From a virus (Duplodnaviria; Caudoviricetes): DNA of 38,845 bases. Location: IMG/VR virus record IMGVR_UViG_3300020045_007055, positions 1-38,845 of that record; one strand, 5' to 3'. The position numbers and the translations under genes were made by a program. Positions 13,894-35,428 of the stretch are shown here, one piece after another (within the stretch, counting starts at the first letter, position 1; every line of letters begins with the position of its first letter). The notes below the pieces were generated by a model. The model saw only the letters and a list, made by a program, of their open reading frames with translations. It was not told where the DNA came from and searched no databases.

Positions 13894-13905
13894 TACTTTT
13901 GTTTT

Positions 13906-14541: not shown

Positions 14542-14635
14542 TGGTCATCCTCTGTCCTCCTAAGAGGGCAGGGATATGCCCACTAACAATATAATTACTC
14601 GCACACGAGCGCAGCGGGCAGAATTCCAGCGCTTC

Positions 14636-14755
14636 ATGGCGACGGCGAAAGCCCCATCTCACGATGCAGAGATATTACCTACGCAGACCGCGGAGGATAT
14701 TGTCGTTCCACCTCTAAAGAAAAAAGGACGACTCCCTAAAACAAAAACCGAATAA
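14636..14755 (+). CDS. Small protein with KKKGRLPK (AT-hook-like) tail
   Basis: Read manually; frame open back to ATA at 14591; stop 3 nt before the next ATG. Confidence 0.45.
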   Translation: MATAKAPSHDAEILPTQTAEDIVVPPLKKKGRLPKTKTE

Positions 14756-14758
14756 ACT

Positions 14759-15358: not shown

Positions 15359-15364
15359 ACGAAT

Positions 15365-15613
15365 ATGTCTACATTTGAAATCACAAAAATCGACAAAGAA
15401 AAGGGTCACGTTTCCGTTGTCTACTCCGTTGACGGCGTGGAACAGACCATGTGCGACTGTCCGTTAGATAGCGAGGAAAGTACCAAGGCGTTCTTGGAGG
15501 ACTACGGCAATCGCTATGAAGCAGCAAAAGCAGTCGAGGCAGCAAAAGCAGCATCAGCAACCGTCGATGTGCTTGTTGGCAAAGTAATTGAGATCACGCC
15601 AGCGGCTCTCTAA
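15365..15613 (+). CDS. Hypothetical protein (possible fibre chaperone)
   Basis: 82-aa ORF tightly packed in the operon. Confidence 0.7.
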   Translation: MSTFEITKIDKEKGHVSVVYSVDGVEQTMCDCPLDSEESTKAFLEDYGNRYEAAKAVEAAKAASATVDVLVGKVIEITPAAL

Positions 15614-15622
15614 CACAAAACC

Positions 15623-18100
15623 ATGTCAAGATACGCTATCAGGTCACAGCCAGCGTCTGTGTTGATTGGCAGTGGTGCTTCGAGCGTTAGATCTACTAAC
15701 AACTGCTCAATCACTGGCAACTCCGCGACCACGATCGGAGCTTTAGCATATCTGCCAGCAGCAGGCACTGCATTCAGCGGCGTGATTTCCTTCGGTACAT
15801 TAACCGTTGGTCAGGCGTACTATCTTGGTACAGACGCTTCAAATGGATTTGGACTCGGTATTTATGGAGCGTTTTACTCAAGTGGGCGCACTTTCCCCGT
15901 TGGCAGATGGGCGCGTGTAATTACTTCTTGGGACGGCGTGAACACCATAAGATATTATATTGACGGTGTTTTGATATCTACATACGTTGCTGCTCTGACG
16001 CCAAATATCGTTGCTGGTAAAATACACGTTGGAAACGTCATCGGTGGGTCATTCCCATTTTTGGGTAAGATCCGCGAAGCATTTGTGTACAATCGCGTGT
16101 TGAGTGACGTTGAAGTGTCCACAGTGGAATTAAACGGTGTCTATCCATCGAGCGGGCTTGAAGCTCTGTATAAATGCGATGAGAACACGGGAACCACAGT
16201 CGCCGATTCATCCGTAAACGCGAACACCGGTACGTTCGTTGGTACAGTCTCATGGGCATCTGGCCCAGTTTCATCGAGAACCGCAGTCGCGCAACAGCAG
16301 AACCTTGTTTATCCATCGGAAGTTTTTACTGGATGGAACATGGTAGGAACGACGATTGGTGCATCCATCGAAGGCCCGTATGTTGGCATGACAGCCACAG
16401 GCATGGTTGAGAGTACCGCAAGCACCAGCCACAACTTTTTTCAGGTATACACAAATACTGTTGGTAAGTTGCATACAGAGTCGATCATGGCTAAAAAAGG
16501 TGATCGCTCCTGGCTCTTGCTCGCTCCAGACAGCGCAGCGCCTAAAGTATGGTTTAACTTAGATACAGGTGTTTTAGGGTCTACAGCAGGTGGAGCAACA
16601 GGGAAGATCGAAGCTCTACCAAATGGTTTTTATCGTTGCTCTATTACATTTACGGCCGGTCTTGTTCAGGGTGTTCTCCGCGCTTATGCAACGACAGCGG
16701 ATACCGTGCAGACGTACGTCGGTACAGTAGGCTTAAATGCTATTTATGTCGTAGGAGCGCAAGCCGTGACATCGAACTGGGAAGGCCCATACAAAAAAAC
16801 AACCGCGTCGGCATATAACGTCGGCAACATCCGCCATATTGTTCCACAGAGACAGAACTTGCTGGCATACTCAGAAGATATCACGCAAGCTAGCGCATGG
16901 AATCTGTCGAATTTGGCCACGCCTACGTTTACTACTGACTATCTTGGTAATAACACGGCACAATTCGTACGTGATAATGCTGTTGCTGGTGTTCATCAAT
17001 TCTGGGAGGCGTATAGTAATATCCAGAACGCGGTATATACTCGGTCGCTCGATATCAAAGCTGTCGGGTCTAATTGGGTCTGGCTTGGAGAGAATAACGG
17101 TACGTCTTATACATACTTCGACCCGACGAATGGCGTATTCGGCATTACTTCCGCCAATCTATTGAATAGACAGGTAAGAAGCTTGGGTAACGGTTTCTGG
17201 CGCGTAGCTATTACTTTTGTTGGTACGAATGGAACGCAATCTCGTTTTACTGTCGCGTCTGGAGGCGACGGATCAGCGATATCATACACGGGTGACGGTT
17301 CAAAGGGTTTCATTGTTGCGCGCAATCAGCTCACTCGTGGTGAGTTTGATTGGCGTTATACGAAAACAACAACAGCAGCCATAAATACTGGCAATATGCG
17401 TGATTTGGCGCGACCAAGAGGCATCGCTGACGGTGTAGTTCCATCTATCCAAGGGCTTAATGCTTGGTATCGCGCAGATGTTGTTGAGCTAACATCGTCC
17501 CTTGTAAGTTCCGTGATCGATTTATCCGGTAAGGGAAATACGTTGATTCAGCCAACAGCGGCATATCGCCCATCCGTGGTCATGTCGGCGGCATTCAATA
17601 ACAAGCCTGTACTTCGTAGCGATGGTACGCGATCTATCGGAAACACGACTAGAAACGTGTTTCCAGCAGACGCTTGTACTATATTCGCTGTGGTCGCCAG
17701 TTCTTCATCTGGTACATCCGGCCAATGGTTTGCAGAGGTACACGGTGGAGGATCTTTACGTTGGCATTTCTACGGCGCTTCAGAGACTGAATTCCAGCGC
17801 TGGAACTCAGCCACGTGTGAACAAACGCTAACGTCTCAGACGGCAGCGATTATCACATACACCGCATCTGGCGTTAACGAGACGATGTATAAGAACAGCG
17901 GTGGCGCTGCCACCTCAGCGTCACGCCCCGGGAATACGAACAGAAACTTAATACTTTTTGCTTCAAATCTCTCATCTTCGTTCCCACGTGCATGTGATAT
18001 TGCGGAGATCATTATCTTCGACAGAATCCTCTCGGCTGGTGAGATTGCATCAGTGAACAGCTATTTATCGACACGATATAACATAACACTCACGCCTTGA
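15623..18100 (+). CDS. Multi-domain LamG/concanavalin-like fibre or adhesin protein
   Basis: LamG motifs (W..V...WDG...YYIDG, G.I.E..VYNRVLS..EV; C-terminal DIAEIIIFDRILSA.EI..V.SYL..RY) with two internal repeats (QQNLVYPSE / RQNLLAYSE). Confidence 0.85.
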   Translation: MSRYAIRSQPASVLIGSGASSVRSTNNCSITGNSATTIGALAYLPAAGTAFSGVISFGTLTVGQAYYLGTDASNGFGLGIYGAFYSSGRTFPVGRWARVITSWDGVNTIRYYIDGVLISTYVAALTPNIVAGKIHVGNVIGGSFPFLGKIREAFVYNRVLSDVEVSTVELNGVYPSSGLEALYKCDENTGTTVADSSVNANTGTFVGTVSWASGPVSSRTAVAQQQNLVYPSEVFTGWNMVGTTIGASIEGPYVGMTATGMVESTASTSHNFFQVYTNTVGKLHTESIMAKKGDRSWLLLAPDSAAPKVWFNLDTGVLGSTAGGATGKIEALPNGFYRCSITFTAGLVQGVLRAYATTADTVQTYVGTVGLNAIYVVGAQAVTSNWEGPYKKTTASAYNVGNIRHIVPQRQNLLAYSEDITQASAWNLSNLATPTFTTDYLGNNTAQFVRDNAVAGVHQFWEAYSNIQNAVYTRSLDIKAVGSNWVWLGENNGTSYTYFDPTNGVFGITSANLLNRQVRSLGNGFWRVAITFVGTNGTQSRFTVASGGDGSAISYTGDGSKGFIVARNQLTRGEFDWRYTKTTTAAINTGNMRDLARPRGIADGVVPSIQGLNAWYRADVVELTSSLVSSVIDLSGKGNTLIQPTAAYRPSVVMSAAFNNKPVLRSDGTRSIGNTTRNVFPADACTIFAVVASSSSGTSGQWFAEVHGGGSLRWHFYGASETEFQRWNSATCEQTLTSQTAAIITYTASGVNETMYKNSGGAATSASRPGNTNRNLILFASNLSSSFPRACDIAEIIIFDRILSAGEIASVNSYLSTRYNITLTP

Positions 18101-18109
18101 TCGTTCTTT

Positions 18110-18421
18110 ATGTCAGAAAACAAAAGTATAGAGTTTAAGATCGGTGAATTGTCAGGACAAGTAACCTCACTCGTTGCATCAATGCGCGATTTCATGGAAG
18201 CTCTTACACGGCTTGAAGGGAAGGTCGAACGCGCGTTAAATGAAGCGAACAAGGATTTTTCTGATTCTATGGCTAAAGTACAAGGACGCATCACTGACAC
18301 GGAGCTTGATATCCGTGAGCTAAAAACACGCGCCGCGATGTGGGGAGGACTCACAGGTATCGCTGGTGCTATATTCATCCAAGTCGTTATTTTGCTAATT
18401 CAGCACTTCATAACCCCGTAA
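18110..18421 (+). CDS. Coiled-coil protein with C-terminal TM helix (lysis-associated, putative)
   Basis: Heptad pattern, then AAMWGGLTGIAGAIFIQVVILLI. Confidence 0.7.
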   Translation: MSENKSIEFKIGELSGQVTSLVASMRDFMEALTRLEGKVERALNEANKDFSDSMAKVQGRITDTELDIRELKTRAAMWGGLTGIAGAIFIQVVILLIQHFITP

Positions 18422-18422
18422 T

Positions 18423-18653
18423 ATGTCGCAGATCGCATTTCAGCTTGACCCAGTGACAGTCGCTAAAATCAAGAAGTCGGCGCTGCTCTCACTCGCAGGT
18501 TTCACGGTAGCAGCAGTTGGTATCCTTACATCCTCGCCAGACGTTCTGGCATGGTTGCAGGCGCACCCGCTTGTTGCAGCGTTCGTCGCATCATTCTCTC
18601 CACTTATTATCAATGCGATCAATGAGTGGCGCTCAGGACAGAAGGTGTTATAA
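18423..18653 (+). CDS. Putative holin (2 TM helices)
   Basis: Two hydrophobic segments, 76 aa, upstream of the peptidases. Confidence 0.65.
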   Translation: MSQIAFQLDPVTVAKIKKSALLSLAGFTVAAVGILTSSPDVLAWLQAHPLVAAFVASFSPLIINAINEWRSGQKVL

Positions 18654-18684
18654 TACGTTTATAATTCGTTTAAGCATTATTGCT

Positions 18685-19032
18685 ATGAACAACTTTGAAG
18701 TCACGCCAGAGATGATTACCGTGTGGGGTAATCACTTCGGCGCAAAATCCATCGATGATGTGCCAGGTATCATTGGTTCCATGAATGCTTTGTCGCAAGG
18801 CATGGGCGAATTGCCTGCCGCATTGTTTGATGCAGAAGCCACTCGCGACATGTTCGCCAAGCTCCGCAGTCTCTATTTCTCGGCACAAGGCAAGGCAGAG
18901 CCTGCTTATTCGGTCATTGATGAGCCAGTCGTCGCGCCTGTCGAGGCAGAAGTCGCGCCAGTCGTTGAGGAGGTCGCGCCTGTTGCAGAGGAAGCCGTGG
19001 AAAAAACGGAGGAGGTTTCTTCGCAGGAATAA
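18685..19032 (+). CDS. Hypothetical protein with acidic E/V/A/P-rich tail
   Basis: Start MNNFEV at 18685, after the TGTTATAAT promoter (18646). Confidence 0.7.
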   Translation: MNNFEVTPEMITVWGNHFGAKSIDDVPGIIGSMNALSQGMGELPAALFDAEATRDMFAKLRSLYFSAQGKAEPAYSVIDEPVVAPVEAEVAPVVEEVAPVAEEAVEKTEEVSSQE

Positions 19033-19119
19033 TCCCGCCTCTATTCATCAGGGAAAGGCTTAAACACAACCTTCCTTGGTGAGTAGTCTCCCGGCGTGTC
19101 AGCGACGCGCTGGGTGGCT

Positions 19120-19560
19120 ATGCCACAATATATTTGGCCGCTCGACAAGGTATTCATTACGCAGTCATTTGGTGTTAATCCAGCCATATATGCCAAATAC
19201 GGCATGAAAGGCCACGACGGGATTGATCTTCGTGTACGGTTCGTGGATTCGCCGCTCGGACGTCGCTACATTAAGGCATCGCGTGATGGTTGGTGTGAGT
19301 GCCGTTGGGACCGCACCGGATATGGCTACCATGTGCGCGTACACCACCCGGATGGTGCTTTGACGATCTACGGGCACATGTCGAAGATTCTTGTCGCGAA
19401 TAAACAGATCGTAAAACAGGGGCAGCACATAGGGTTGACTGGCACGACGGGATTTTCCAGCGGTCCCCACCTCCATTTCGAGGTCAGACCGCCAAATTGC
19501 AACGTAAAAAATGGATTTGCTGGTGCTGTTGACCCAATTCCGCTACTTCCGAAGCTATGA
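19120..19560 (+). CDS. M23 family peptidase (endolysin)
   Basis: HDGIDL, GYGYHV, YGHMS, GTTGFSSGPHLHFEV. Confidence 0.93.
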   Translation: MPQYIWPLDKVFITQSFGVNPAIYAKYGMKGHDGIDLRVRFVDSPLGRRYIKASRDGWCECRWDRTGYGYHVRVHHPDGALTIYGHMSKILVANKQIVKQGQHIGLTGTTGFSSGPHLHFEVRPPNCNVKNGFAGAVDPIPLLPKL

Positions 19561-20018
19561 TTGTCTATCAAGGCGCGAAAAAGTCATGCGTGGCATGTTC
19601 TTTGGCATGGATGGCCATGTTTTGGCACAAAGGCACGGAATACGACTGGAATGTACTTTGGAATAATCTGAATGGTGACGATGACGGGCTTGAACCGAAG
19701 TACGCCATGCGTCTTGCGCGTGTCCTCGGCTGGTTCCGTGTCACGGTTCGCATCCCTGTCGCGTTCATTCGGTTTTTTCTTTGGCTCGGTTTTCCTGTTG
19801 TCATAGGTGTGCCCATGAACCGTTTGTTTTGGTCCGGTACATCATACGAGCATCCAGTGGTTTGGAATGGTGACAATGATGAGGATCATATGGTTGTTGC
19901 AACAGGGCATGACGGTCTTGGAAACTGGCACATTGTCGGCTGGGGAAACGAAACAGAGCAGGAATATCGATTGCTCGACAAGTATTATCCGATTAAGCAG
20001 GCCTACATATGCCGTTAA
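19557..20018 (+). CDS. Papain-like (C1/C39) cysteine peptidase
   Basis: Q....SCVACS and HMVVATG..., with a Cys/His dyad pattern. Confidence 0.65.
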   Translation: MIVYQGAKKSCVACSLAWMAMFWHKGTEYDWNVLWNNLNGDDDGLEPKYAMRLARVLGWFRVTVRIPVAFIRFFLWLGFPVVIGVPMNRLFWSGTSYEHPVVWNGDNDEDHMVVATGHDGLGNWHIVGWGNETEQEYRLLDKYYPIKQAYICR

Positions 20019-20182
20019 AAACGGGCAAGTCAGATTCAGTTTTTGTGTATAACGCCAAAGAGATGATGGCCTCCGGGCGTTCCATGAATGATGCGCTCGC
20101 CTCCGCAAGCGTAAAGCGTGATGCACATGTTGCGGCGTACACGAAACGAGATATTGCTCTCGCAGACAAGCGGAAAAAGTAG
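20009..20182 (+). CDS. Small conserved phage protein (MPLKTGKS...EMMASGRS...), 57 aa
   Basis: Read manually; resembles the widespread MPLKKGKS...SGRPQKQAVA phage mini-proteins. Confidence 0.6.
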   Translation: MPLKTGKSDSVFVYNAKEMMASGRSMNDALASASVKRDAHVAAYTKRDIALADKRKK

Positions 20183-20217
20183 TATAATGTATTCATAATT
20201 CATTAACTTTTCTCACC

Positions 20218-20301
20218 ATGAAAAAAGTTGCAAAGAAGGTCGTCAAGAAGGTGGCCGCCAAGAAAGTCGTCAAGAAGGTTGCGAAGAAGGGCAAGAAATA
20301 A
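20218..20301 (+). CDS. 27-aa histone-H1-like basic peptide MKKVAKKVVKKVAAKKVVKKVAKKGKK
   Basis: Read manually; TATAAT at 20183 upstream; synonymous codon variation across the repeats. Confidence 0.7.
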   Translation: MKKVAKKVVKKVAAKKVVKKVAKKGKK

Positions 20302-20319
20302 TCCTAAAACAAAAACAAA

Positions 20320-21552
20320 ATGTCGCGAACTTACTCTCAGCTTTATGCGGCAGTAAATAGCAAACTGCAAAAGGCGGGAGGCACAATCACCACCGCTGAT
20401 TTTTTGGCCGGTGTGAATCTTGCGCTCGATGGCATTTTGCTGGAAATCGAACCGCCGGAGCTTCAGCGCACGCAATCGCTGTCTCCGGCTTTGTTTAAGG
20501 ACGTGATCGTCTACTCGGTCCCCTCGGACCTGCAAGGCGACGCGATCATTGATATCCGCCCGCTTGTCGAACTTCCTAGCAAGTCGATGCCGAACGCTTG
20601 GCGCAAGAACACGACTGTCGCGTTCGAGCAGAATTTGATCGGCGACAAGACACAGCAAGCGTGGACAATCGAATACAACAACGGGTCGCGCTATCTCCGC
20701 GTGTTAGCTGACAATAACGGCCTCACGCAGAACGTGCAGATCGATTCGTGTGATTCTTACAATGGCAACGGCACATGGACCGCAGACGCGACAACGGATG
20801 CACTGAACGTCACGACGAACAACGTCAATTACTTCGAGGGCACGGGGGCAGTTTCGTTCGATGTCTCGGTTGCTCAATCGGGTAATAATTACGCGACCAT
20901 TTACAACAACGGGATCTCCACTTTGGATATTTCAGGTTTGACCGCTCCTTATTTATTTTTCTACGTTTATTTACCTTCCGCGACGTATGTCACAAGCGTG
21001 AGCATGGTGCTGGGATCTGGTGCATCGGTTACGCCATCCACCAAAGCGGACTACCAAACCTTTACCGCAACAACACAGTTCGACGGAACGGCGTTTGTGT
21101 CTGGTCGCAATCTGATCGGCGTACCGCTTTCATCGGCTGTACAGACTGGCACGTTCGCTTCGACAGCGTTGACGTACCTTGAACTGACAGTCAACTATTC
21201 CGCGTCACAAGCGAATATGACGGGCGTGTTGCTCGATGGTATCTATCTTCGAGAGGGCATGTTGTACGAGATCCGATACATCTCGCAAAGCGCCGTTGTC
21301 TCCGTGTCTGGTACGCGCAAGCAATACTTCACAGCAGACGACGACACGCTCGCCTTCAACGCCGAAGGTGAATTAGTTTTTGTTGAATACACGGCGGGAT
21401 ATCTTGCGCCGAACGTCAAAGACGTTCAGACGGGTGAGCTGTTCGGCAATCGCGCATCTCGGTTTATCTCGCAATACAATTTCCGCTATCCAAAACAGCG
21501 CCGGTTAACGTCAAAGAACTGGTATGATTCAGGTGAGGGATATCTTATCTAG
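20320..21552 (+). CDS. Head-tail adaptor / tail tubular protein A-like, with inserted beta domain
   Basis: Helical N- and C-termini (YSVPSDL motif) flank a beta-rich insert; precedes the nozzle. Confidence 0.65.
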   Translation: MSRTYSQLYAAVNSKLQKAGGTITTADFLAGVNLALDGILLEIEPPELQRTQSLSPALFKDVIVYSVPSDLQGDAIIDIRPLVELPSKSMPNAWRKNTTVAFEQNLIGDKTQQAWTIEYNNGSRYLRVLADNNGLTQNVQIDSCDSYNGNGTWTADATTDALNVTTNNVNYFEGTGAVSFDVSVAQSGNNYATIYNNGISTLDISGLTAPYLFFYVYLPSATYVTSVSMVLGSGASVTPSTKADYQTFTATTQFDGTAFVSGRNLIGVPLSSAVQTGTFASTALTYLELTVNYSASQANMTGVLLDGIYLREGMLYEIRYISQSAVVSVSGTRKQYFTADDDTLAFNAEGELVFVEYTAGYLAPNVKDVQTGELFGNRASRFISQYNFRYPKQRRLTSKNWYDSGEGYLI

Positions 21553-21555
21553 CCT

Positions 21556-23610
21556 ATGGCACGTTCATATAACCTTGTCCCGTGGTGTGAACTGACGGAA
21601 GGCTGGAATAATCGCGTCGATTCTCCAAAAGCGCCTGGTCTTTTGACCATGCAAAACTCTGTCATCACGGATCGCGGCGGTGTGGCTACTCGCCCCGGGA
21701 CTGAATTGCTCGGCGCGTCTGACAATTCTGGCGTCGCGTGTACATCGCTTTTCACAGCAGTTCGACGCGATGGAACGCAGATTTTACTTCGCGCGGCTGG
21801 GACTGTTTTGGAATACTACAACACAGCGAGCGCTGTATGGGCGACGCTAAAATCTGGCCTCACGAACGCACAAGCATTCGGCTTTGCAAACCACAACATC
21901 AACACGGATCAGATCGACTATCTCTATTTCTGCAACGCCGTCGAGCCATACAGCCGATGGACGATGGCGTTCGATAAAACCACAGCGATTGTCGCGCCAG
22001 CTGCAACAGCCATCCCCGTCACGACGACACTGGAACCGAACGTCTACCACACAAACACCGCCTCGTCGGTGACAACAACAACAATCGATGTGCCCGCTGG
22101 CACATGGGCCGCAGACATTTGGAATGTCGGTTTTTATGTGCGCATCACATCAGGCGCACAGTCTGGTTCTATCTCGCCAATCTCAGCTACAACGGCGACA
22201 CAAATCACGTTCACGGCAATCGCCGGACTCGCTGGCACGCCGACATTCGAGATTCGACGCTTAAAGTTCCCTGCCGCTGGGTCAATCATCGACGGGAACG
22301 GTACGATCACGGCGTATTCACAGATTGTATCGGATACCTCGCTCCCGGTTGCGTCAGCGCCAGCCATGGTGTCTGGGCTTTCAATCGCATCAGTACCAGA
22401 TGAGCTGATGTCAAATGGCTGTCCCCGCGGGAATATCCTTCAAACGATGTTTCAGATCATGCTCGTGGCCGGCACAAAAGATCATCCGACAACGCTTTAC
22501 CGCTCTAAATTATCGAACGCGGCAGATTTCGGCTATTCCGCGCCACGTGTGGCGGGTGAAGGCGACGTGATCGAATTCCCGGATGGAGGCGGGCGCATCA
22601 CAGATATTTCCGTCCGTGAAGATCAGGTTGAGGTTTTAAAAGAATCAGCAATCTTCGACCTCACGTTCACGCAAGACGCGAATGATTTGCCAGACAAAAA
22701 AACGCGCGTTAACTCTCCGCTTATCGGTACTGCTGGGCGCTCATTCCGCATGGGTGACGAAATTGTGTTTGTCTCTCCGGCAAAAGAGGTCACATCACTT
22801 TCCCGTGTCGCGCTCCGTGATAACCAACCGCAGCGCACAAACCTCGCGTGGCCTATTAAGAATGCGATCCGCAATTACTCATTTGACTCTGTGCGCGGGT
22901 ATACGTTCAAAAATTACACGGTGCTCGCTGGCAAAGAAACTGCATCGAGCCTGACGAACGACAAGGTGCTGGTGTTCGACAATAACCTCCAAAAATGGAT
23001 TGGCGAGTGGAATATCCCTGCTGCTGATTTTGCGGTGTACAACAATGAACTGTATTTCGCGTCGTCGTCGTCAAAGGAGGTCTATAAGATGTTCACGACA
23101 TCGACATCTACGGTGAAAGGGTCCGACGTGACAGGGTTTGATACGTATTGCGAGACACAGTGGACGAATAAGACCTCTGACGCGCTCTCGACGCAGAATT
23201 TTAATATTCTGGCGGTAACTGGGTACGTTCGCCTGAATACACCAATCACGTTTGGCCTTTGCTACGATTTCAACCCTATCCCGCATGTCACCTGGACGTT
23301 TGACCCCGCTTTGGCGTCCGTCGTCGATGTAAATATTGTCGGCTCTACGCCGGGGAACTCCATGGGCGTAACTGCTCTTGGTGTTACGCCGCTTGGAACA
23401 GAGGTCGCGGCAGCATCAGGCGATCACGACGAACAGCGCTTTATCGTGTATTTCCTCGTGCCGTATATCGATCACAATTGGGCGAAGCTCTCGTGGGCGA
23501 CAAGTGGGTCGAACAAGTACGTCGAGATCACAGACATCAAGAGCAACTTCGTAGAAGGTAACACGCAGATTCAGCAAAAACTACAGCGATCAATTGAATC
23601 AACAACATAA
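21556..23610 (+). CDS. Tail nozzle / tubular protein B-like (beta-propeller)
   Basis: GWN...MQN..I...GGVATRPG N-terminus typical of podovirus nozzle proteins; 684 aa. Confidence 0.75.
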   Translation: MARSYNLVPWCELTEGWNNRVDSPKAPGLLTMQNSVITDRGGVATRPGTELLGASDNSGVACTSLFTAVRRDGTQILLRAAGTVLEYYNTASAVWATLKSGLTNAQAFGFANHNINTDQIDYLYFCNAVEPYSRWTMAFDKTTAIVAPAATAIPVTTTLEPNVYHTNTASSVTTTTIDVPAGTWAADIWNVGFYVRITSGAQSGSISPISATTATQITFTAIAGLAGTPTFEIRRLKFPAAGSIIDGNGTITAYSQIVSDTSLPVASAPAMVSGLSIASVPDELMSNGCPRGNILQTMFQIMLVAGTKDHPTTLYRSKLSNAADFGYSAPRVAGEGDVIEFPDGGGRITDISVREDQVEVLKESAIFDLTFTQDANDLPDKKTRVNSPLIGTAGRSFRMGDEIVFVSPAKEVTSLSRVALRDNQPQRTNLAWPIKNAIRNYSFDSVRGYTFKNYTVLAGKETASSLTNDKVLVFDNNLQKWIGEWNIPAADFAVYNNELYFASSSSKEVYKMFTTSTSTVKGSDVTGFDTYCETQWTNKTSDALSTQNFNILAVTGYVRLNTPITFGLCYDFNPIPHVTWTFDPALASVVDVNIVGSTPGNSMGVTALGVTPLGTEVAAASGDHDEQRFIVYFLVPYIDHNWAKLSWATSGSNKYVEITDIKSNFVEGNTQIQQKLQRSIESTT

Positions 23611-23615
23611 TCTAT

Positions 23616-25079
23616 ATGGCCGCAAATAATTTTGTATCTACTCCCGAGCTGGTGATGAAGGCGGATGTACTTTCCACCGACGCATCGTTCAAGCTCCAAA
23701 ATATCAACTGGTATACCGGCTCCGATGGCGTCGTCGTTCCGCTGACGTCCGGTGCGTTTGGCTCGTCAGGTGTCGGTTTCGGTGTGTTCGATGAACGCAC
23801 GCCGTCACAGGAATTCTTTACATGGGACACGTCCACGCTTGCGAACGCGACGACATCCGGTATCACAATTCTCTCCCGTGGTTTGCCATGGGGGAGCGAC
23901 TACACAACCGAAGCGACATCGCGAAAGTTCTTCCATGCGTCTGGGTCCAAAGTGTTGCTCTACACGAACTCTCCCGCTTTCTACAACACGTTTGCGAATA
24001 AAGAGAACGCTGAAACCATCACGGGGAAGTGGGTTGTGCCGACGTATACAGCGTCAGATATCCACCAGGTCGCATCGATTGAGTACGCAAATGCGCTCGC
24101 TATCGCGGGGGCATCTGACGCATCTACAACAGTAAAAGGTATCAGCCAAATCGCCACAGGCGCACAGCTCGCAGCAAGCACGGGCACTGGTAGCACCGGG
24201 GCTGTTCTTGTGGCGGCTGGGTCTAGCTTCAAGAATACGTCAGCCGGTGCAGGAGACGCGAATAAAGTGCCTGTGTTGAACGGAAGCGGTTTATTGGATT
24301 CCTCTTTTATCGGCAACATCTCTAAGACGGCAGCGGAATTGCAAGTGACGACTGACGCGACGAACGCGAATGACGCCGTTCGATATTCCAAGGCTCAGAG
24401 CATGGTGTCACAGGGCGAAGCAACCGGAACATCTGGAGAGGCTTTTAGCGTTGGACAAGCCCTATACGTCAAAGCGTCAGATTCTAGGCTTTACAAAGCG
24501 GTCGGTACATCAGATGAGCCAACATTTTCTTTTGTTGGCATCGCGCTTGATGCAGCCGGTGGAGCTGGAACAGCCGGAATTCGTTTCGCTAAACCTGGAG
24601 GTATTGCTACTGGACTTTCCGGTTTGACTGCTGGATCATATTACTATGTGACTGATACGGCTGGAACAATTGGAACGACGCCAGGGACGCGATTTGCAAA
24701 AGTTGGGCAAGCGTTATCAACAACAACGCTCCGTGTATGTGAACCGAAATTTGTTGTGAGTGGATCACAAACGGTTTCATCGGCAACAACATATACACAA
24801 ACGACTGGTTTTTATCCCGCACGTATTATTGTTACCGCAGGTCTCGGCAACTCTGGCGTCTCCATGGGCGTTGATAATAATTGCACCTATGCGTCGCTTA
24901 CCAGCGCGGGCAACACGGGCGGAGATGGAACTGGCAACGCGTGGTATGTACGTGATGCAAACACAAACACAACTGGCAGCATTGGAACAATATCATCTAA
25001 GACTGCCACGGGCTTCGTTCTAACGTGTGGAACGTATAAAACAAGCACGGTCGTGAATTGGACGGCGTATAGCGAATAG
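23616..25079 (+). CDS. Tail fibre protein
   Basis: DASTTVKGISQIAT repeat motif and GL.AGSYYYV.DTAG.I...PG domain. Confidence 0.75.
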   Translation: MAANNFVSTPELVMKADVLSTDASFKLQNINWYTGSDGVVVPLTSGAFGSSGVGFGVFDERTPSQEFFTWDTSTLANATTSGITILSRGLPWGSDYTTEATSRKFFHASGSKVLLYTNSPAFYNTFANKENAETITGKWVVPTYTASDIHQVASIEYANALAIAGASDASTTVKGISQIATGAQLAASTGTGSTGAVLVAAGSSFKNTSAGAGDANKVPVLNGSGLLDSSFIGNISKTAAELQVTTDATNANDAVRYSKAQSMVSQGEATGTSGEAFSVGQALYVKASDSRLYKAVGTSDEPTFSFVGIALDAAGGAGTAGIRFAKPGGIATGLSGLTAGSYYYVTDTAGTIGTTPGTRFAKVGQALSTTTLRVCEPKFVVSGSQTVSSATTYTQTTGFYPARIIVTAGLGNSGVSMGVDNNCTYASLTSAGNTGGDGTGNAWYVRDANTNTTGSIGTISSKTATGFVLTCGTYKTSTVVNWTAYSE

Positions 25080-25082
25080 CCT

Positions 25083-25979
25083 ATGACTCCCTATCAGCCA
25101 AATGCGTCACAAACGATGGCGGGTCGCGTGCAAATCGCGACGGCTGACAATATTGCAGCAGGTGACACCATAGGTTCAACAGGTGCGCCGCTTGTCGTGC
25201 CGGCAAATCTTGCCGGTGGTGGTGGCGGAGGTGGCGCACCAACAAGCGCGTCGTATGTGACGCTCTCGTCCGATGGTACGCTCACAGCTGAACGGGTACT
25301 CACTGGCACGACGAATCAGATTACGATTACTGACAACGGCGCGAACAGCACGGTTGTTCTTTCAACGCCTCAGAACATCCACACGGGCGCGTCTCCGCAG
25401 TTTGCTGGCATCAAAGTCGGAACGCTCACGGGGATCATCAAGGGCACGTCTGGTACGCTTGGTGCGGCTACGCCAGGCGTGGATTATGAGAATCCCCTCA
25501 CGTTTTCAACCGGCTTGAATCGTGCAATAGACACCATCACGGTTGCCGATAACACGACGACACAGAAAGTGGTTGTCTCAAAGGATGGCTCAACTGTCGG
25601 GACACGCAAGCAGATCAATCTTATCGAGGGGACAAACGTCTCGCTCACGGTTGCAGATAACGCAGGATCAGACAGCGTGGATGTGACAATCACGTCTACG
25701 GCAGCGGGTGGCGCTACGCTCACGGAGGTTGAAGTTGACTTCGGGACCAAGCCGACAACTGACGCGCAATTCACGATCACAGATGCGAGCGTGTCGGGTA
25801 CGAGCAAGATCACTGTCACGCCTTCTGGCAATACGGCAACTGGGCGTGTCGCTGGTGACAACCAATGGGATAGCGTCATGTACTCTGCACTCGCGGCGAC
25901 GGGCAATTTTATTCTGTATGCAGTGTGTTCAACGGGTAGTCTTGTTGGAAAGCGCAAAGTTTATTATTCAATAGCATAA
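25083..25979 (+). CDS. Tail fibre / virion structural protein
   Basis: Gly hinge, LTAERVLTG and INLIEGTNVSLTV motifs of phage fibres. Confidence 0.75.
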   Translation: MTPYQPNASQTMAGRVQIATADNIAAGDTIGSTGAPLVVPANLAGGGGGGGAPTSASYVTLSSDGTLTAERVLTGTTNQITITDNGANSTVVLSTPQNIHTGASPQFAGIKVGTLTGIIKGTSGTLGAATPGVDYENPLTFSTGLNRAIDTITVADNTTTQKVVVSKDGSTVGTRKQINLIEGTNVSLTVADNAGSDSVDVTITSTAAGGATLTEVEVDFGTKPTTDAQFTITDASVSGTSKITVTPSGNTATGRVAGDNQWDSVMYSALAATGNFILYAVCSTGSLVGKRKVYYSIA

Positions 25980-25983
25980 AATT

Positions 25984-27462
25984 ATGGCAGTCATTGACTC
26001 AGGATCATCTTCCGCAGGAAAGGTAAACGTGGACGCTGGGTTTAACCTAAACGTCACGCTTCCAACAAACGATGCGTACACGGGAAAAGTGCGCATGATG
26101 AGTGAGAACGACGCAGGGGAGATTACAGGATCGCCATTTTTAAAAAGCCCTGAAACATCGCCAGACTATCGGTTGCGTGTAGGCGTGGACACATTACTAT
26201 TTGAGGATTCATTTAATGCCGCCGCACAGAATACAAACCTCTGGGCGTATACGTTCGCAACGCTCACAGCTGCACAGCCCGGGGCTGGAACAGTAAACTT
26301 CTCTACGGTGCAGGGCACGACAAGCGCACATGGTGCGTTCATGCGCACGTTCCAACACTTTCCATTGACGAATACGGCGCCGCTCGCAATTGAATTCATG
26401 GGGGGGTCTTTCATTGCGCCGCTCGTGGCAAACGAAAACTGGCTTGCTGGCATTGGCTTGCCTTCATCAGCAGTCGCACGACCTACTGATGGCGTATGGT
26501 TTAAGCTCACGACAGCGGGCCTTGAAGGCGTACAGGCATTTAACGGAACAGAAACGTCGACTGGTGTCTTATATCCGTTTGAATCAATTCAGACAGGCGT
26601 AATGGGTAAATATCTCATTGTAATTGGTGAGCGTGAAATTGAATTCTGGGTTGATGATATATTATTGGGTGAATTGGAAATTCCAACTGGCAATGCGGTC
26701 CCGTGGCTCGGTGTGTCAGCTCCTGTTTTCTTGATGAAATACAACACTGGCGCTGTTTCAAATACAAACCAAATGCGCGTTGCACGTATCGGAGTATCTT
26801 TAATCGATCTCCAGAGCAATCGTACATGGGCAACAACAAAGGGCGCATCTGGGTGCAGTCTGTCTGTTGGTCAGAACGGCTACGCAATGGGTAACACGGG
26901 CGGGAATGTAGGCACAACGTCTGCTATTGCGGGAACGCAGGCCGGGTCAAATACAGCGCCAAACGCCGTCATGGCTGGGTTGGGTGGTATTTTTCAGATG
27001 ACTGCACAGGCCAGCGCCGCTGGGGCATCTGGTGACATGATCGCGTCGTATTACCTCAATCCGATTCCGACAATAAATATCACGGGGCGCAATTACTTGG
27101 TTTACGGATGCAAGATAACGGCTATCAACTACGGTGCAGTTGTGGCGACAACGCCAACAACACTCATTTGGGGCTTGGCATATGGCCATACGAATGTGTC
27201 GCTAGCGACAACAGACACAGGTTCATTCGTGACAGCGACAACGCACTCGCCACGTCACATCATGCTTGGGTCAAACTACGTGCCTGTTGGTGCTGTTGTT
27301 GGTCAGCCATATGATAAGGAGATATTGATGCGCTTTGATGGGTGTCCGATTGTTGTCCGTCCGGGGGAATATTTAGCAACAACAGTACGCTTTATCGTGG
27401 GTACAGCCACCGCATCGCAGACGGTACTTTATACCGTTACATTTGATGGCCACTTTGAATAA
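25984..27462 (+). CDS. Virion structural protein (beta-rich, possible receptor binding)
   Basis: 492 aa, lectin-like middle region, in the tail operon. Confidence 0.7.
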   Translation: MAVIDSGSSSAGKVNVDAGFNLNVTLPTNDAYTGKVRMMSENDAGEITGSPFLKSPETSPDYRLRVGVDTLLFEDSFNAAAQNTNLWAYTFATLTAAQPGAGTVNFSTVQGTTSAHGAFMRTFQHFPLTNTAPLAIEFMGGSFIAPLVANENWLAGIGLPSSAVARPTDGVWFKLTTAGLEGVQAFNGTETSTGVLYPFESIQTGVMGKYLIVIGEREIEFWVDDILLGELEIPTGNAVPWLGVSAPVFLMKYNTGAVSNTNQMRVARIGVSLIDLQSNRTWATTKGASGCSLSVGQNGYAMGNTGGNVGTTSAIAGTQAGSNTAPNAVMAGLGGIFQMTAQASAAGASGDMIASYYLNPIPTINITGRNYLVYGCKITAINYGAVVATTPTTLIWGLAYGHTNVSLATTDTGSFVTATTHSPRHIMLGSNYVPVGAVVGQPYDKEILMRFDGCPIVVRPGEYLATTVRFIVGTATASQTVLYTVTFDGHFE

Positions 27463-27465
27463 TCT

Positions 27466-27669
27466 ATGAATCAATCCGCACCTCTTGGCGCGAAGCCAAC
27501 AACAGCATCAAGCATCGTTGACGCATACCTCGCGCCACAGCAGTCAGCCACTGTGTCAAGTGAAATGTACGATCAGCAAAAACAGCAGACGATGGATCGT
27601 TTGATGAAGCTCCAAAATAAACAATCGTACATGCAGCGGTCCGGCATGGCGCCTCCTCCACAAATCTAA
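27466..27669 (+). CDS. Small Gln-rich protein (possible ejection protein)
   Basis: TAATCTATG junction shared with the neighbouring genes. Confidence 0.6.
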   Translation: MNQSAPLGAKPTTASSIVDAYLAPQQSATVSSEMYDQQKQQTMDRLMKLQNKQSYMQRSGMAPPPQI

Positions 27670-30412: not shown

Positions 30413-33262
30413 ATGGCAATCGACTACGCGGCCTTAGCCAAGAAAAATGGAGGCGCAGTCAAGACTGATTACACGGCCTTGGCAAAACAATTCAACGGTA
30501 CGGCACAGTCTGCACCAAAGCCAACGCCCGCGACGGACGGGACATTGGACTATCTGAAGACGACTAATGCGCCGCAGGGTGCATGGGACATTGCGAAGGG
30601 GTTTGCAAAGACAGCCATTGAAAAGCCGTTCAATGCCGCTAAACTTGGCATGTCGAACGCAGCGCAAACAGCAGTGGACTATTTCCCCATTGGTTTTGAC
30701 CGTGAGAAACGAGATGTTCTTACGTTAGGCGAAGCCATCAAGCGCGACATGGGCACGCTCGCATCGTACTTGTCGCCTGAAAAGAAAAAGGAACTTCACG
30801 ATAAAGCGCAGGAGGTTCAGGCTGGGCTTCAGAAAGGCGCGACGCCATTTGCGCTCTTGGAACGTAATAACGCCGGTGAGCGCATGGGTGAATTCGTCGA
30901 GCGTACGGGGGAAATGATTGCAGCTGGTGGCATGTTCAATGCTGCTCCTACGACAGGCATGGCACGTCTTCCGGCTATCTTGCAGAATTCGCTCGTGACT
31001 GAGGCGACGACCGCACTCCAAAAAGGGGATATCACGCCGGAGGATCTAATGGGGTCTGTAGCATTCGGAGGCATGACGCAGCTTGGGGCAATCCCAAATG
31101 CGCTTTTTGGTACGGATCAGGCCATTGGCGCTATAAAGTCAGCCAAGGAGGGAAATTACGAGCAGGCCATTCAGGAGGGTGTGATGGGTGCTATGGGTAT
31201 TCACGGAGCCATGAAACAGCGCGGCATGATACTTGATAGGCCGATAGGCGATATTGGCCCTGTGCCAGCGCCAAAAGCCTCTGGGACACGATACGCGTCG
31301 GCATTTGAGCCGGAGGGAAATATCATCAATAGATTTGGGAAAAAACAGCAAATGGCTATTATTAAGCCAACGCGAAAAGACATTGACAATGGGTTCGATG
31401 TCAACACGCTTACTGAGTTTGGTCTGGGAGGATCAACAGACAAAATGTGGGTCAAGACGAATGCGAAGATCGCTGAATATGGCGAGCACCTGGCTAAGAT
31501 CAGACAAGAGTGGGGCGATCCAATGGTTATTGACATGCACAAGGCGTATCAAGATACGGTTGCTGATCTAACGGCTAAAGGAAAGAGCTTTCATCAGGAG
31601 GAGACGCAAAATGCCTTAAATAAAATGGCACGTGAGATTGAGCTGAATCATCCTGAATGGAAAGATCAAAAGGTTTCATTTAACGATGGATGGAATGCCA
31701 AACTTCAGTCGGGAGACGAGGCAGCGTTTCATAGTGATCCAATGAAGCGCGGCACGGAGTCGCCACAAGAGGAGGCGTGGAATACGCTATATCGTAAGTT
31801 AAAATTGCAGCTTGAGGAAAACGCACCGCCAGAATATAAGCAGGTAAATGAGGCACTCACAAAACTGATTCCTGTGCGCCAAACACTCTTCCGTGCGTTG
31901 AATCAAGAGGGGCGCAATCACGTCCTGTCACTCCACGATGTGATTGCTGGCGCGGCGATTACAGCACATCCAAGCGCCGCAGCGTTTGCTATTACACAGA
32001 AACTCTTGCGGAATGGTGGTATTGCGGGTTTTCTCGCTGGTCTTGGCCGTTCCAAGACTGCATTCAAGCCAGGGGAAATATCAAAACGTCCTCAGTATCT
32101 CACGCTTCCGCCAGGTAAGACGCAGTATGCGGGTCCGGCAACAACACCGACCGGCGAATCACGCCTTATGTCGCAAGGTGAGGCGGTCCAATCCTACCGT
32201 GAGCAGGGGTCAGCCATGGGTCTGACAAAGGAGGAACATATGGCAGCAGCGCAACCGAAGTCGGTATTTGCAACACTGGAAGCTGCACAAAAACCAGAAT
32301 CAATGCCAGCAATGTTGCCATCGGAATTGGCGTCACTTGAATCGAGCTACAATGGCGGAGATACAGCGCGGATCGCGGCGCGGAATATCCAACAGAGCAT
32401 CAAACAGGAAAACGCGCAGATACGCGAACAGACGCAGGCTGAACGCCAACAGCAGGCACAAGCGTTTAACGAATCGCGCAATCCATACTTGGATAATCCG
32501 CGTGTGCTTGGTGCTATCAAGGCACATGCTGAATATCGCCGTGAAGGCAGGGTCAAGGATACGATGGGCGAGGGTGCTATTTATGAACGCGATGGTAAAT
32601 ATCGAATTGCCAGTACACCAGCCGAAAAAGAGGCGCTATCATCATTAGGGTTCAAGAACAGTGGTATTGGCGTGGATTCGCTCGCGGAGGAAGCCGGATT
32701 CACGAATGGCGAGGAGTATCTGAATGCGGTGTTAAAGCAGGCGGAGGGAGCGAAGATGTATGGAAAACCCATAGACACGAGCGGCTATACACCGGCGTCA
32801 AAATTGCTTGAATCGGCTTTTAACGCTTCAAGAAATATTGACAACATATATAAAGATTTTGACTTAGGTTCTTTTGGAAGAAACCATCAGGATAGAAAAA
32901 TCGCCGAAGGTAAGTTTGACAGATTCCCTGAATCTGAGCTTGTAGATACATTAAAAAATGCTGAGCCATTTTCCCGTGGGTCAAATGATCCAAGTAATTA
33001 TCGTGTTGATAACACTATTTGGATAGCTGAGATGCCTAATGGCGAAACACGTGCTATTTATACAAGAAAAAATAAAGCCGGAAATAATGAAATTGTTAAC
33101 TGGCACGAAATACCGGAAACAAAAAAGGACAGCTATTTATTCAAACTGTCCACTTTTGGTGTCCCCAATGGGATTCAAACCCATATTGACGGCTTAGAAG
33201 GCCATGCGCCTATTCAGTTGGCGGATGGGGACAGCCAAAGTATAGCACCCAGCGCAGAATAA
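30413..33262 (+). CDS. Large internal virion (ejection) protein with a putative C-terminal RNase-toxin-like domain
   Basis: MAIDYAALAKK repeat N-terminus, Ala/Gly helical body, last gene of the structural operon, compositionally distinct C-terminal alpha+beta domain. Confidence 0.75.
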   Translation: MAIDYAALAKKNGGAVKTDYTALAKQFNGTAQSAPKPTPATDGTLDYLKTTNAPQGAWDIAKGFAKTAIEKPFNAAKLGMSNAAQTAVDYFPIGFDREKRDVLTLGEAIKRDMGTLASYLSPEKKKELHDKAQEVQAGLQKGATPFALLERNNAGERMGEFVERTGEMIAAGGMFNAAPTTGMARLPAILQNSLVTEATTALQKGDITPEDLMGSVAFGGMTQLGAIPNALFGTDQAIGAIKSAKEGNYEQAIQEGVMGAMGIHGAMKQRGMILDRPIGDIGPVPAPKASGTRYASAFEPEGNIINRFGKKQQMAIIKPTRKDIDNGFDVNTLTEFGLGGSTDKMWVKTNAKIAEYGEHLAKIRQEWGDPMVIDMHKAYQDTVADLTAKGKSFHQEETQNALNKMAREIELNHPEWKDQKVSFNDGWNAKLQSGDEAAFHSDPMKRGTESPQEEAWNTLYRKLKLQLEENAPPEYKQVNEALTKLIPVRQTLFRALNQEGRNHVLSLHDVIAGAAITAHPSAAAFAITQKLLRNGGIAGFLAGLGRSKTAFKPGEISKRPQYLTLPPGKTQYAGPATTPTGESRLMSQGEAVQSYREQGSAMGLTKEEHMAAAQPKSVFATLEAAQKPESMPAMLPSELASLESSYNGGDTARIAARNIQQSIKQENAQIREQTQAERQQQAQAFNESRNPYLDNPRVLGAIKAHAEYRREGRVKDTMGEGAIYERDGKYRIASTPAEKEALSSLGFKNSGIGVDSLAEEAGFTNGEEYLNAVLKQAEGAKMYGKPIDTSGYTPASKLLESAFNASRNIDNIYKDFDLGSFGRNHQDRKIAEGKFDRFPESELVDTLKNAEPFSRGSNDPSNYRVDNTIWIAEMPNGETRAIYTRKNKAGNNEIVNWHEIPETKKDSYLFKLSTFGVPNGIQTHIDGLEGHAPIQLADGDSQSIAPSAE
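33121..33151 (-). terminator. Intrinsic terminator of the nested tRNA
   Basis: Minus strand GGACAGTT-TGAATAAAT-AGCTGTCC-TTTTTT, 5 nt after the tRNA CCA. Confidence 0.75.
33157..33232 (-). tRNA. tRNA-Arg (anticodon TCT), antisense inside CDS 30413..33262
   Basis: GTCCCCA TC CGCC AACTGAATA GGCG C ATGGC CTTCTAA GCCGT CAAT ATGGG TTTGAAT CCCAT TGGGGAC A CCA: 76 nt, all four stems paired, encoded CCA. Confidence 0.9.
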
Positions 33263-33267
33263 GTAAA
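33239..33267 (-). promoter_or_regulatory. sigma70 promoter of the nested tRNA
   Basis: TTTACT-17 nt-TATACT with extended TG (TGCTATACT); 6 nt separate the -10 box from tRNA base 1. Confidence 0.8.
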
Positions 33268-33269: not shown

Positions 33270-33300
33270 AAAAACATCCGCCTTGCCAGCGGATGTTTTT
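33270..33300. terminator. Bidirectional intrinsic terminator between convergent operons
   Basis: AAAAACATCCGC-CTTGCCA-GCGGATGTTTTT. Confidence 0.9.
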
Positions 33301-34650: not shown

Positions 34651-34920
34651 TTATTTCTCCGTGTTGTCATCTAGCCAATCAAAAAACTCGTCCACACGCA
34701 GGATGTTCCCCACCTGCTTTTTTATCGCCTCTGCCTGCTCCCTCGTAAACGTAACTTCTGGCTTGATCCAGTCGAGCTTGTCGGCGTCTGGCATATCCAT
34801 GAAAAAACTGCAATTCTTGTAATCAATCCTGAAGCAAAGAAAATAAGTGTTTAATACGTCCGCCACTTCCCACATCCACGGTCCGAGCTTAAATTTATCG
34901 CCTACAGAGACATTTTTCAT
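34651..34920 (-). CDS. Hypothetical protein
   Basis: 89-aa packed ORF. Confidence 0.65.
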   Translation of the reverse strand: MKNVSVGDKFKLGPWMWEVADVLNTYFLCFRIDYKNCSFFMDMPDADKLDWIKPEVTFTREQAEAIKKQVGNILRVDEFFDWLDDNTEK

Positions 34921-35428
34921 ATTTTTTAAGTTGATATGGTGCGTATTTTTTATTAGAGAGAATTGAAGCTATCGGCAAGTCTCTAAATAGCCTTGATCTT
35001 ATTGTTGACTCATTTATTCCGATAAATTCTGACCACTCTTTTACTGACATCGTTTTTCTTTTAAACGTTATTGTTAATGTGTTTTTTCGGTTCTTGTTCT
35101 GTTCTAATACTGTAGCCCATCTGCAATTTTCTTTTGAATAAGATTTTTTATTATTGATTCTATCGATGGTTGTATTTTTAGTGCCGAATTTTTTGCAATG
35201 AGCAAGATAAGAATCGTACATGTCATCTCTGAACTCTTCAAAAGATTCCCATTCTATTTTTATTCCATTACCGCCATAGTTCTTGTAATCCTTGTCATTT
35301 TTGACATAACATCTTCTTTTCATTCTTTGCCATTTTCTATAAAAAATTGTTTTTGTCATCCCATGCGTTGTGGCGCGGAGTCTCAAATAATCTTTAATTT
35401 TTTGAGTGTGTGTTGATCCTTTTTCCAT
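34895..35428 (-). CDS. HNH homing-endonuclease-like protein
   Basis: THGM...W..MK.RC...YKNYGG.GI...W.SFE.F...TIDRINN...YSKENCRWAT..EQ..N; markedly AT-rich. Confidence 0.88.
   Translation of the reverse strand: MEKGSTHTQKIKDYLRLRATTHGMTKTIFYRKWQRMKRRCYVKNDKDYKNYGGNGIKIEWESFEEFRDDMYDSYLAHCKKFGTKNTTIDRINNKKSYSKENCRWATVLEQNKNRKNTLTITFKRKTMSVKEWSEFIGINESTIRSRLFRDLPIASILSNKKYAPYQLKKYEKCLCRR

Follow-up and report, generated by a model that had tools for sequence, protein, structure and literature searches.

A tRNA-Arg(UCU) gene nested antisense behind a predicted colicin-D-like RNase domain in a phage protein: a candidate toxin-antidote cassette

Introduction

Why would a phage keep a tRNA gene, with what look like a promoter and terminator of its own, on the opposite strand of a protein-coding gene? 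The question is raised by IMG/VR record IMGVR_UViG_3300020045_007055 (Duplodnaviria; Caudoviricetes), referred to below as the window: the whole stretch of DNA analyzed, a phage genome that is complete at 38,845 bases and has a terminal repeat of 111 bases. Its plus strand carries terminase, portal, capsid, and tail genes, and the last gene of this virion module is an open reading frame (ORF) of 949 amino acids, P0001 (30413..33262, plus strand). The sole tRNA called by ARAGORN in the window, tRNA-Arg(tct) at 33157-33232 on the minus strand, lies inside it.

A first-pass annotation, made from the sequence alone, had proposed that this tRNA travels as one cassette with the C-terminal domain of P0001, a domain to which it gave no identity. 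The domain is predicted here to be a colicin-D-like RNase, which would supply a reason for the coupling, and the tRNA or its footprint has been found behind the relatives of the domain. The reading to which a little more than an even chance is given here is that the cassette encodes a virion-delivered tRNA-Arg(UCU) nuclease together with a resistant replacement tRNA as its antidote, written inside the nuclease's own gene.

Anatomy of the nested unit

The 76-nt tRNA-Arg(UCU) (33157..33232, minus strand) is recognized by ARAGORN and by Rfam (RF00005; 49.3 bits, the gathering score being 29; E 9.3e-08), and the cloverleaf is its minimum-energy fold (-27.8 kcal/mol, z -2.76). Arginine identity in tRNA is conferred by A20, C35, U36, and a purine at position 73; all of these are present, position 73 being A, as is an encoded CCA. 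The D stem is non-canonical, and the tertiary pair G19-C56 is swapped for A19-U56.

Upstream on the same strand, a -35 box, TTTACT (33262..33267), shares one base with the TAA stop codon of P0001, the last of that codon, and is followed after a 17-nt spacer by an extended -10 element (33239..33247, minus strand; TG at 33247-33246 and TATACT at 33244-33239). The -10 box is 6 nt from G1 of the tRNA and corresponds on the plus strand to the in-frame codons AGT ATA (Ser-Ile); the usual sigma70 spacing would place the transcription start at tRNA base 1. On the other side, a terminator-like hairpin (33121..33151, minus strand; hairpin 33151-33127 and U6 33126-33121) occupies codons of the RNase domain's last helix; its folding energy is -10.9 kcal/mol (z -3.8), and the consensus terminator scan did not list it. 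Read on the plus strand, the tRNA and promoter encode 34 codons plus the stop (33158..33262), a peptide predicted to be disordered (predicted local distance difference test, pLDDT, below 50 for model residues 122-148). The first-pass description of these parts was thus accurate, from the TTTACT-17-TATACT promoter touching the stop codon, through the CCA-bearing tRNA 6 nt past it, to the hairpin and U run and the protein frame that stays open throughout, and the anatomy of the cassette is well supported.

Could such an arrangement arise by chance? A single 9/12 promoter match is ordinary (14 found in 6 kb, against 9.5 ± 2.9 expected), and the antisense frame is open over 77 of 111 ordinary viral tRNA-Arg(UCU) genes, so that this too is common by chance. 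As neither feature is remarkable alone, the case turns on conserved coupling in relatives. The open frames would also suit a simple hitch-hiking account, in which an ordinary tRNA, kept for codon supply or as an attachment site, was overrun by an ORF that had lost its stop codon, the overlap being inherited with no functional link; the predicted disorder of the peptide fits this account as well. A matching frame open for the 115 codons before the tRNA was found in none of the 111 ordinary viral genes, and among 112 control viral tRNA-Arg(UCU) genes an antisense frame of at least 100 codons was found in two, neither like the RNase domain.

Conservation of the coupling

Eight related DNA loci were compared (L001-L006, L043, and L086; L007 repeats L005, and L001 and L004 are near-copies), and all eight have tRNA-Arg(UCU) antisense directly behind the domain, a feature that the first-pass annotation had proposed to look for in homologues. 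A DNA pattern combining tRNA and domain returned 16 loci: four already known, one new (L086), and 11 that were unrelated and were left out. The Rfam cut-off was passed by all but L006 of the seven loci scanned, and also by L043 and L086. Stem positions are 38-71% alike across loci, the anticodon is always UCU, and CCA, purine 73, A20, and paired acceptor and T-stems were kept in the loci examined. Pairing is maintained in 141 of 147 stem cells over seven sequences, as against 101.8 ± 4 (maximum 117) in shuffled ones; among the six gap-free sequences 96.2% of cells are paired and 17 of 22 pairs have changed on both sides, a level of covariation reached by 0 of 500 shuffles, with slid controls at or below 55% (six sequences).

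The signals around the tRNA are conserved to varying degrees. Counting the window, eight of nine loci have 6 nt between the end of the -10 box and tRNA base 1 (63 nt in L006), extended TG is present in eight of nine, and a strong hairpin follows the CCA in six of nine; the -35 box is TTGACA or TTGACC in six of the eight relatives. A strict fixed-offset promoter rule is satisfied by six of nine loci, but by only two of 111 control tRNAs. This conservation is what supports the earlier description of the tRNA as deliberately expressed and almost leaderless, which is best kept as a suggestion from sequence; of the AGTATA (“SI”) that it suggested looking for behind homologous domains, the position of the -10 box is kept, while the literal Ser-Ile is not conserved. 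Downstream genes vary among the five loci with downstream sequence, with no small gene conserved behind the cassette. Three of five related virus records have the nested tRNA as their sole Rfam tRNA.

One alternative suggested by this geometry is control in cis, the minus-strand RNA silencing the toxin mRNA or causing its truncation, with a tRNA shape that serves only to stabilize the minus-strand RNA. The transcript would indeed be fully complementary to the mRNA, from a convergent promoter, but the pairing would lie mostly downstream of the nuclease codons, and neither an invariant UCU anticodon nor a covarying cloverleaf is necessary for antisense pairing; such control seems extremely unlikely as the explanation.

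At the protein level, 36 other proteins have the domain in front of the tRNA footprint, 37 with P0001, and pairwise identity is 36-88% among the 35 full-length domains. In 37 of 37, the last domain His is followed, 14-17 residues on, by the motif G-x-P/S-x-x-x-R/Q-T, the antisense reading of the tRNA acceptor stem and T-loop. Four residues beyond it stand LE or IE in 29 proteins and xR in six, which correspond to two anticodon-loop phases, for 4- and 5-base variable loops; the remaining two proteins end precisely where a T-loop reading TTCAA would place a TGA codon. The complete signature occurs 35 times in 41,452 residues, every time at the domain site. At this level LE would permit Arg(UCU) or Gly(UCC), and xR any Arg anticodon, whereas all the copies seen as DNA are UCU. 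Of the 27 proteins that extend far enough for the check, 17 have V-K/N, the antisense of TTGAC, at one and the same offset.

When the carriers are compared without the domain, they form 15 unrelated groups; P0001 stands alone in one of these, though its domain is nearest to those of P0003 and P0004. The cassette is usually mid-gene, often with 700-1400 residues after it; in eight of the 37 proteins the protein ends within or just past the tRNA, another point on which hitch-hiking might draw. Because all 37 domain proteins keep the footprint, in 15 unrelated carrier groups, the cassette is, as judged from these comparisons, a mobile, in-frame unit of about 450 bp and not just a C-terminal quirk. 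The idea of one travelling cassette has in this way been borne out, along with its coupling to the domain; its placing at the coding end describes P0001 and a minority of carriers. Domain-tRNA co-evolution is not claimed, since the domain tree is mostly unresolved and the tRNAs with 5-nt variable loops are not one clade. No domain relative was found among annotated phages, where the DNA search matched tRNA-sized pieces only, and single- and two-sequence scans of viral contigs for relatives gave no match.

Hitch-hiking is largely refuted by the 37/37 coupling: the pair has been kept at 36-88% domain identity, in unrelated carriers. Codon supply for the late genes is not the reason for the tRNA, because the core structural genes of the window use AGA for seven of 217 Arg codons (14 hand-picked genes, the AGA-rich LamG fiber gene left out). 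On an attachment-site role, no tyrosine integrase or resolvase (PF00589, PF00239) was found in the five related virus records (53-92% complete), and the nested tRNAs are unlike the host copies sampled. Inheritance of the overlap with no functional link is regarded as very unlikely.

The predicted RNase domain

What is the domain to which the tRNA is coupled? It comprises about 113 residues (approximately 803-915 of P0001; 32819..33157, plus strand), with a GC content of 35%, against 51% upstream of it, and it has no Pfam, PHROG, or PDB sequence match. The AlphaFold (AF2) model is confident (pLDDT at least 87 in the 10-residue blocks from 11 to 110) and has a pre-helix plus helix and an antiparallel sheet, as in the BECR-fold colicin-like group. 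In a comparison with 48,161 solved chains, the model came closest to the colicin D tRNase (5znm_B; Z 7.0, rmsd 2.7 over 83 aligned residues), followed by BrnT (Z 6.6), a second colicin D entry, 1tfk_A (6.2), and the NC101 toxin (5.4) of a contact-dependent inhibition (CDI) system. All five solved chains at Z 5 or above are BECR-type toxins, with middling scores. The weak rows of a Foldseek search include BrnT, CDI toxins, and MuF-C and LPD3 proteins; a second structural run restricted to Foldseek's list placed BrnT first. For the homologue P0003, the Atlas points to LPD3 and PBECR3 (feature scores 0.88-0.92). The model thus allows a BECR fold to be assigned with fair confidence, with colicin D as its closest relative only at tie level.

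Eight residues (K829, D836, R837, R864, T884, N887, E893, and H898) are invariant in 35/35 domains. K829 is on the first helix (the pre-helix) and H898 on the last strand, and from the model these two are predicted to form the active site; in the colicin-like group the active site is described on the pre-helix and last strand, and targets are mostly tRNAs (10.64898/2026.08.28.747851). Colicin D itself cleaves tRNA-Arg at 38/39 and has a catalytic His611 (PMC9990079). A candidate mode of autoregulation through AGA richness of the domain was rejected, AGA being used for five of eight Arg codons in the window domain and for none of nine in L043.

P0001 itself has no Pfam or PHROG match. From gene order, and from the presence of LPD38 in two and peptidase M90 in one of 15 scanned carrier proteins, it is likely to be an ejection or polyvalent-type protein, and the earlier label “virion protein” is to be read in the same conditional way. 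The domain is an effector domain found in varied multidomain proteins of virion modules (15 carrier groups), as is characteristic of polyvalent proteins.

Departures from ordinary tRNAs

If the nested tRNA were resistant to the nuclease, how might it differ from ordinary copies? A first comparison with host D-stems was biased in that the search pattern demanded RAGC; 34 extra host copies were chosen without that demand, from a set enriched for genomes missed by the first pattern. Position 26 is never A in the nine nested tRNAs, whereas A stands there in 101 of the 112 viral controls and in 28 of the 34 extra host copies, and the D-strand GAGC is present in one of nine nested tRNAs, 75 of 112 viral controls, and 19 of 34 extra host copies. 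A43 shows the opposite tendency (7/8 nested, 16/112 viral controls). These departures at position 26, in the D stem, and at A43 may mark a resistance surface, or may reflect the protein frame, where the triplet A26-C25-G24 would give Cys. As a candidate escape change, G32 was rejected, since host tRNA-Arg has it too.

Proposed mechanism and alternatives

A tRNase-like domain always accompanied by one particular tRNA is most simply explained as a toxin plus its antidote. In the proposed mechanism, P0001 would be packaged and injected with the virion, and its plus-strand domain would cut host tRNA-Arg(UCU), a substrate suggested by the invariant anticodon and the likeness to colicin D. Host polymerase would transcribe the minus-strand tRNA gene, with no RNase P step if transcription starts at base 1, and host arginyl-tRNA synthetase would charge the product, which would then replace the destroyed tRNA, resisting cleavage by way of its changed D-arm and hinge and not its anticodon loop. 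Such a phage would deliver its toxin ready-made, as protein, and its antidote in the form of DNA alone. Hosts that degrade the entering DNA would remain poisoned; host translation that depends on AGA would be held up until infection had taken hold, and the antidote would shield the phage later, while it makes the toxin protein in bulk. With the antidote nested beside the toxin codons, the pair would stay joined as domains shuffle among polyvalent proteins.

The chromosomal copies have some bearing on this. In two likely host-chromosome copies (L005/L007 and L006), the front of the domain, including Lys829, has been lost, while promoter and tRNA are kept (n=2). Neighboring genes (labels partly by eye) are trp-repressor-, Clp-, rplT-, and smpB-like genes and tmRNA for L007, and a folP-like gene and tRNA-Gly for L006. 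By analogy, such nuclease-broken copies look like orphan immunity genes, and together with the coupling they suggest that the cassette may belong among toxin-antitoxin systems. Several local details were also noted. At L007 635-2023 (G001:C5), phage-like fragments stand amid housekeeping genes: the broken nuclease, the intact tRNA unit, and other short phage-like frames. At L006 1634-2435, tRNA-Gly(GCC) adjoins a serine-recombinase-like C-terminal end (by eye), then the truncated cassette; in the L006 tRNA the D-loop is short and the anticodon stem weak, behind the leader of 63 nt, and P0021 and P0038 seem to have the long-leader form too. In G001, an incomplete genome with many tRNAs absent, the nested tRNA is the sole Arg(UCU) found, none being present among the 34 other tRNAs called; this was not used as evidence.

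A rather different use of the same RNA would be as a decoy: a tRNA-shaped inhibitor sitting in the nuclease active site, much as RNAs act in type III toxin-antitoxin pairs, and not needed in translation. The 37/37 coupling is equally expected in this case; the unchanged anticodon loop is what a substrate mimic would require, the odd D-arms and the degenerate, long-leader form in L006 fit as well, and competition by viral tRNAs is raised as a possibility in the PARIS paper (PMC12409363). However, CCA, purine 73, paired acceptor and T-stems, and A20 have been kept, as in a tRNA that is charged. Retention of these features and of the anticodon favors a working replacement over a decoy, which is judged unlikely. 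That there is some direct link between toxin and antidote, the decoy version counted, seems fairly probable.

Alternatively, domain and tRNA could form a counter-defense pair, the tRNA replacing a tRNA-Arg(UCU) cut by a host defense nuclease and the domain acting elsewhere (on mRNA, CRISPR RNA, or a defense protein) or shielding the tRNA uncut. That phage tRNAs can offset host tRNases is established (PMC12409363; PMC10264068), mRNA or CRISPR RNA targets were favored for PBECR domains by Iyer et al. (PMC5512222), and Lys takes the place of the colicin D His. This would leave unexplained why the tRNA lies 14-21 codons past the last domain His in every carrier, and most phage tRNA-Arg(UCU) genes are not nested; the explanation is considered rather improbable.

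A number of observations weigh against the replacement-tRNA reading itself. Its expression, cleavage, and resistance steps are predictions from sequence. On the protein side, Z 7.0 is within the range reachable by unrelated folds and at tie level with BrnT at 6.6; Foldseek gave no match at E ≤ 0.001, and no profile match was found to PBECR3 (PF18812), LPD3 (PF18798), or Colicin_D (PF11429; none at E ≤ 10), PBECR1, 2, 4, and 5 and MuF_C being covered by whole-Pfam scans only. The catalytic helix His of colicin D is not among the columns conserved at 90% or more, Lys being conserved instead, and Iyer et al. (PMC5512222) argued that PBECR domains probably spare host tRNA. On the RNA side, the nested anticodon loops are of host-like types, with no visible escape change for a 38/39 cut; the departures at position 26 and in the D stem could stem from protein-coding constraint; the L006 tRNA is degenerate and falls below the Rfam cut-off; and the terminator hairpin is weak in three of nine loci (L003, L005, L086). 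AGA is the commonest Arg codon in the L001, L003, and L004 phages. All relatives come from searches seeded on the RNase-domain family, by which a distant branch lacking the tRNA could be missed. As for the host link, the window capsid protein matched 0/401 genomes of G001's phylum.

A wider proposal can also be made, tentatively and at somewhat less than an even chance: the cassette would represent a new toxin-antitoxin class, with a working tRNA gene as antitoxin, antisense in the toxin frame. The injected nuclease would act as a dead-man's switch against DNA-destroying hosts, hosts would capture the tRNA half as orphan immunity, and other polyvalent RNase families might hide other nested RNAs.

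Genome setting and likely host

A 13-bp terminator-like hairpin (33270..33300) with a T run on both strands separates the late operon from the minus-strand genes that converge on it, and the terminator scan listed it on the minus strand; its bidirectional character had been correctly recognized in the first-pass annotation. Shine-Dalgarno-like motifs precede five of 53 hand-picked window ORFs and none of 22 late genes; the late-gene starts have A-rich leaders, which fits a Patescibacteria-like host. These rare motifs and the two chromosomal cassette copies suggest that the host is probably a Patescibacterium. The RNase domain matched one of the 401 genomes of G001's phylum, namely G001 itself, and the window capsid protein had no relative among the viral contigs searched.

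The codon usage of the window is uneven. AGA and AGG are near-absent from the core structural genes (11689-27669), whereas AGA makes up 31 of 95 Arg codons in the minus-strand genes. The LamG fiber gene (15623-18100; 12 AGA) and an HNH gene (34895-35428; 11 of 16 Arg codons) are AGA-rich, which suggests imported modules. A very Arg-rich ORF at 292-567 (36 of 91 codons Arg, 21 of them CGG) is probably a short repeat tract. The 910-aa protein encoded just before P0001 (27675-30407) contains a stretch, QCGNSW...YGHIGF...SESNW, resembling by eye a CHAP-type cell-wall hydrolase, with no Pfam match.

Some peculiarities of the bacterial genomes were also recorded. In G001, a Patescibacteria-type genome, two tRNAs (L011 and L023) are both called Ile(TAT). 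A 101-nt Rfam tRNA match (G406:C1:37797-37897, L249; 47.3 bits) without an ARAGORN call is possibly an unusual or interrupted tRNA. TTCTAG-A/C-AATAGAGTG..GTTC is a recurring chromosomal element with tRNA-like T-loop spacing in several Patescibacteria genomes (e.g., G018, G046, G071, G084, G095).

Significance

What would follow from a functional cassette of this kind? The targets of the predicted RNase domains in polyvalent proteins have been an open question since 2017; for one of these domains the cassette offers a directly testable substrate, and it points to tRNA where the founding PBECR paper argued against it. It would also provide another answer to the presence of a single tRNA in small phages: self-immunity to the phage's own toxin, in place of codon supply or host defense. 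In other polyvalent RNase families a nested anticodon would, by the same logic, name each nuclease's substrate, and the nuclease paired with its resistant tRNA would serve as a tool for controlling translation at chosen codons. Should the mechanism prove wrong, the anatomy is still unusual, with promoter, tRNA, and terminator sharing DNA with a protein domain and linker. Annotation pipelines that drop tRNAs overlapping coding sequences would miss the cassette, as the first-pass annotation warned, while its peptide footprint makes it searchable in protein databases.

Comparison with known systems

In type III toxin-antitoxin systems an RNA neutralizes the toxin, the antitoxins being repeat pseudoknots encoded upstream on the same strand; in CreTA, CreT is an RNA toxin targeting tRNA-Arg(UCU). 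To our knowledge, neither type III systems nor CreTA have a tRNA gene nested in a nuclease gene.

One close parallel is offered by the PBECR/LPD3 RNase domains (Iyer et al. 2017; PMC5512222), where a BECR-like domain has moved between large proteins of the virion module, which are predicted to be injected and in some cases bear LPD38 or a metallopeptidase. In the present case there is no PBECR3/LPD3 profile match, and Lys, not His or Arg, is on the first helix; a linked tRNA is not mentioned for PBECR/LPD3 in the available text of that paper, which argues against tRNA targets. Colicin D and colicin-like CDI tRNases are the best structural match, and colicin D cuts tRNA-Arg (PMC9990079; 10.64898/2026.08.28.747851). 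They differ in being secreted antibacterial toxins with an immunity protein, and colicin D uses His611 and cuts four Arg isoacceptors, while the present cassette implies one isoacceptor only and has a tRNA as partner.

In the MuF toxins of temperate phages, too, a protein of the phage structural module bears an exchangeable toxin domain and has its partner next to it (PMC5576092). That partner is a small protein encoded downstream: a small ORF, putatively for immunity, comes after 89.4% of the toxin genes (PMC5576092). In the present cassette its place is taken by an opposite-strand tRNA gene within the ORF itself, and the domain often lies in the interior of the protein. No MuF match was found in the window or the scanned carriers, and no downstream gene is shared by the five loci, which places the cassette outside the MuF class.

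Phage tRNAs that outlast host tRNases are described in several reports (PMC12409363, PMC10264068, PMC7824862). As proposed here, the host tRNA that has been cleaved is made good by a variant from the phage in the case of T5 tRNA-Lys and PARIS AriB (PMC12409363) and in that of van den Berg et al. (2023; PMC10264068). In those systems the nuclease belongs to the host and the tRNAs are in free arrays, whereas here both would be phage-encoded on shared DNA and the anticodon loop is without change. The HepS prophage anticodon nuclease (PMC13043305) is, like the one proposed, a phage-encoded tRNase obliged to spare its own phage. It has a HEPN fold, however, and acts in trigger-activated abortive infection, with self-avoidance by a non-triggering tail tip and not by a tRNA (PMC13043305). 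A patescibacterial phage has tRNA-Arg(TCT) among four tRNAs, the available text of the report giving no link to a nuclease gene or an antitoxin role (10.1101/2024.03.08.584096). No description of a tRNA nested in a phage nuclease gene, or of a tRNA as antitoxin, was found in a literature search made mostly at title and abstract level, with subscription journals and supplements outside its scope. Overall, the parts of the cassette have known relatives; it would function like its colicin D, PBECR, and MuF kin and yet fails the Colicin_D, PBECR3, and LPD3 profile tests and has no MuF domain.

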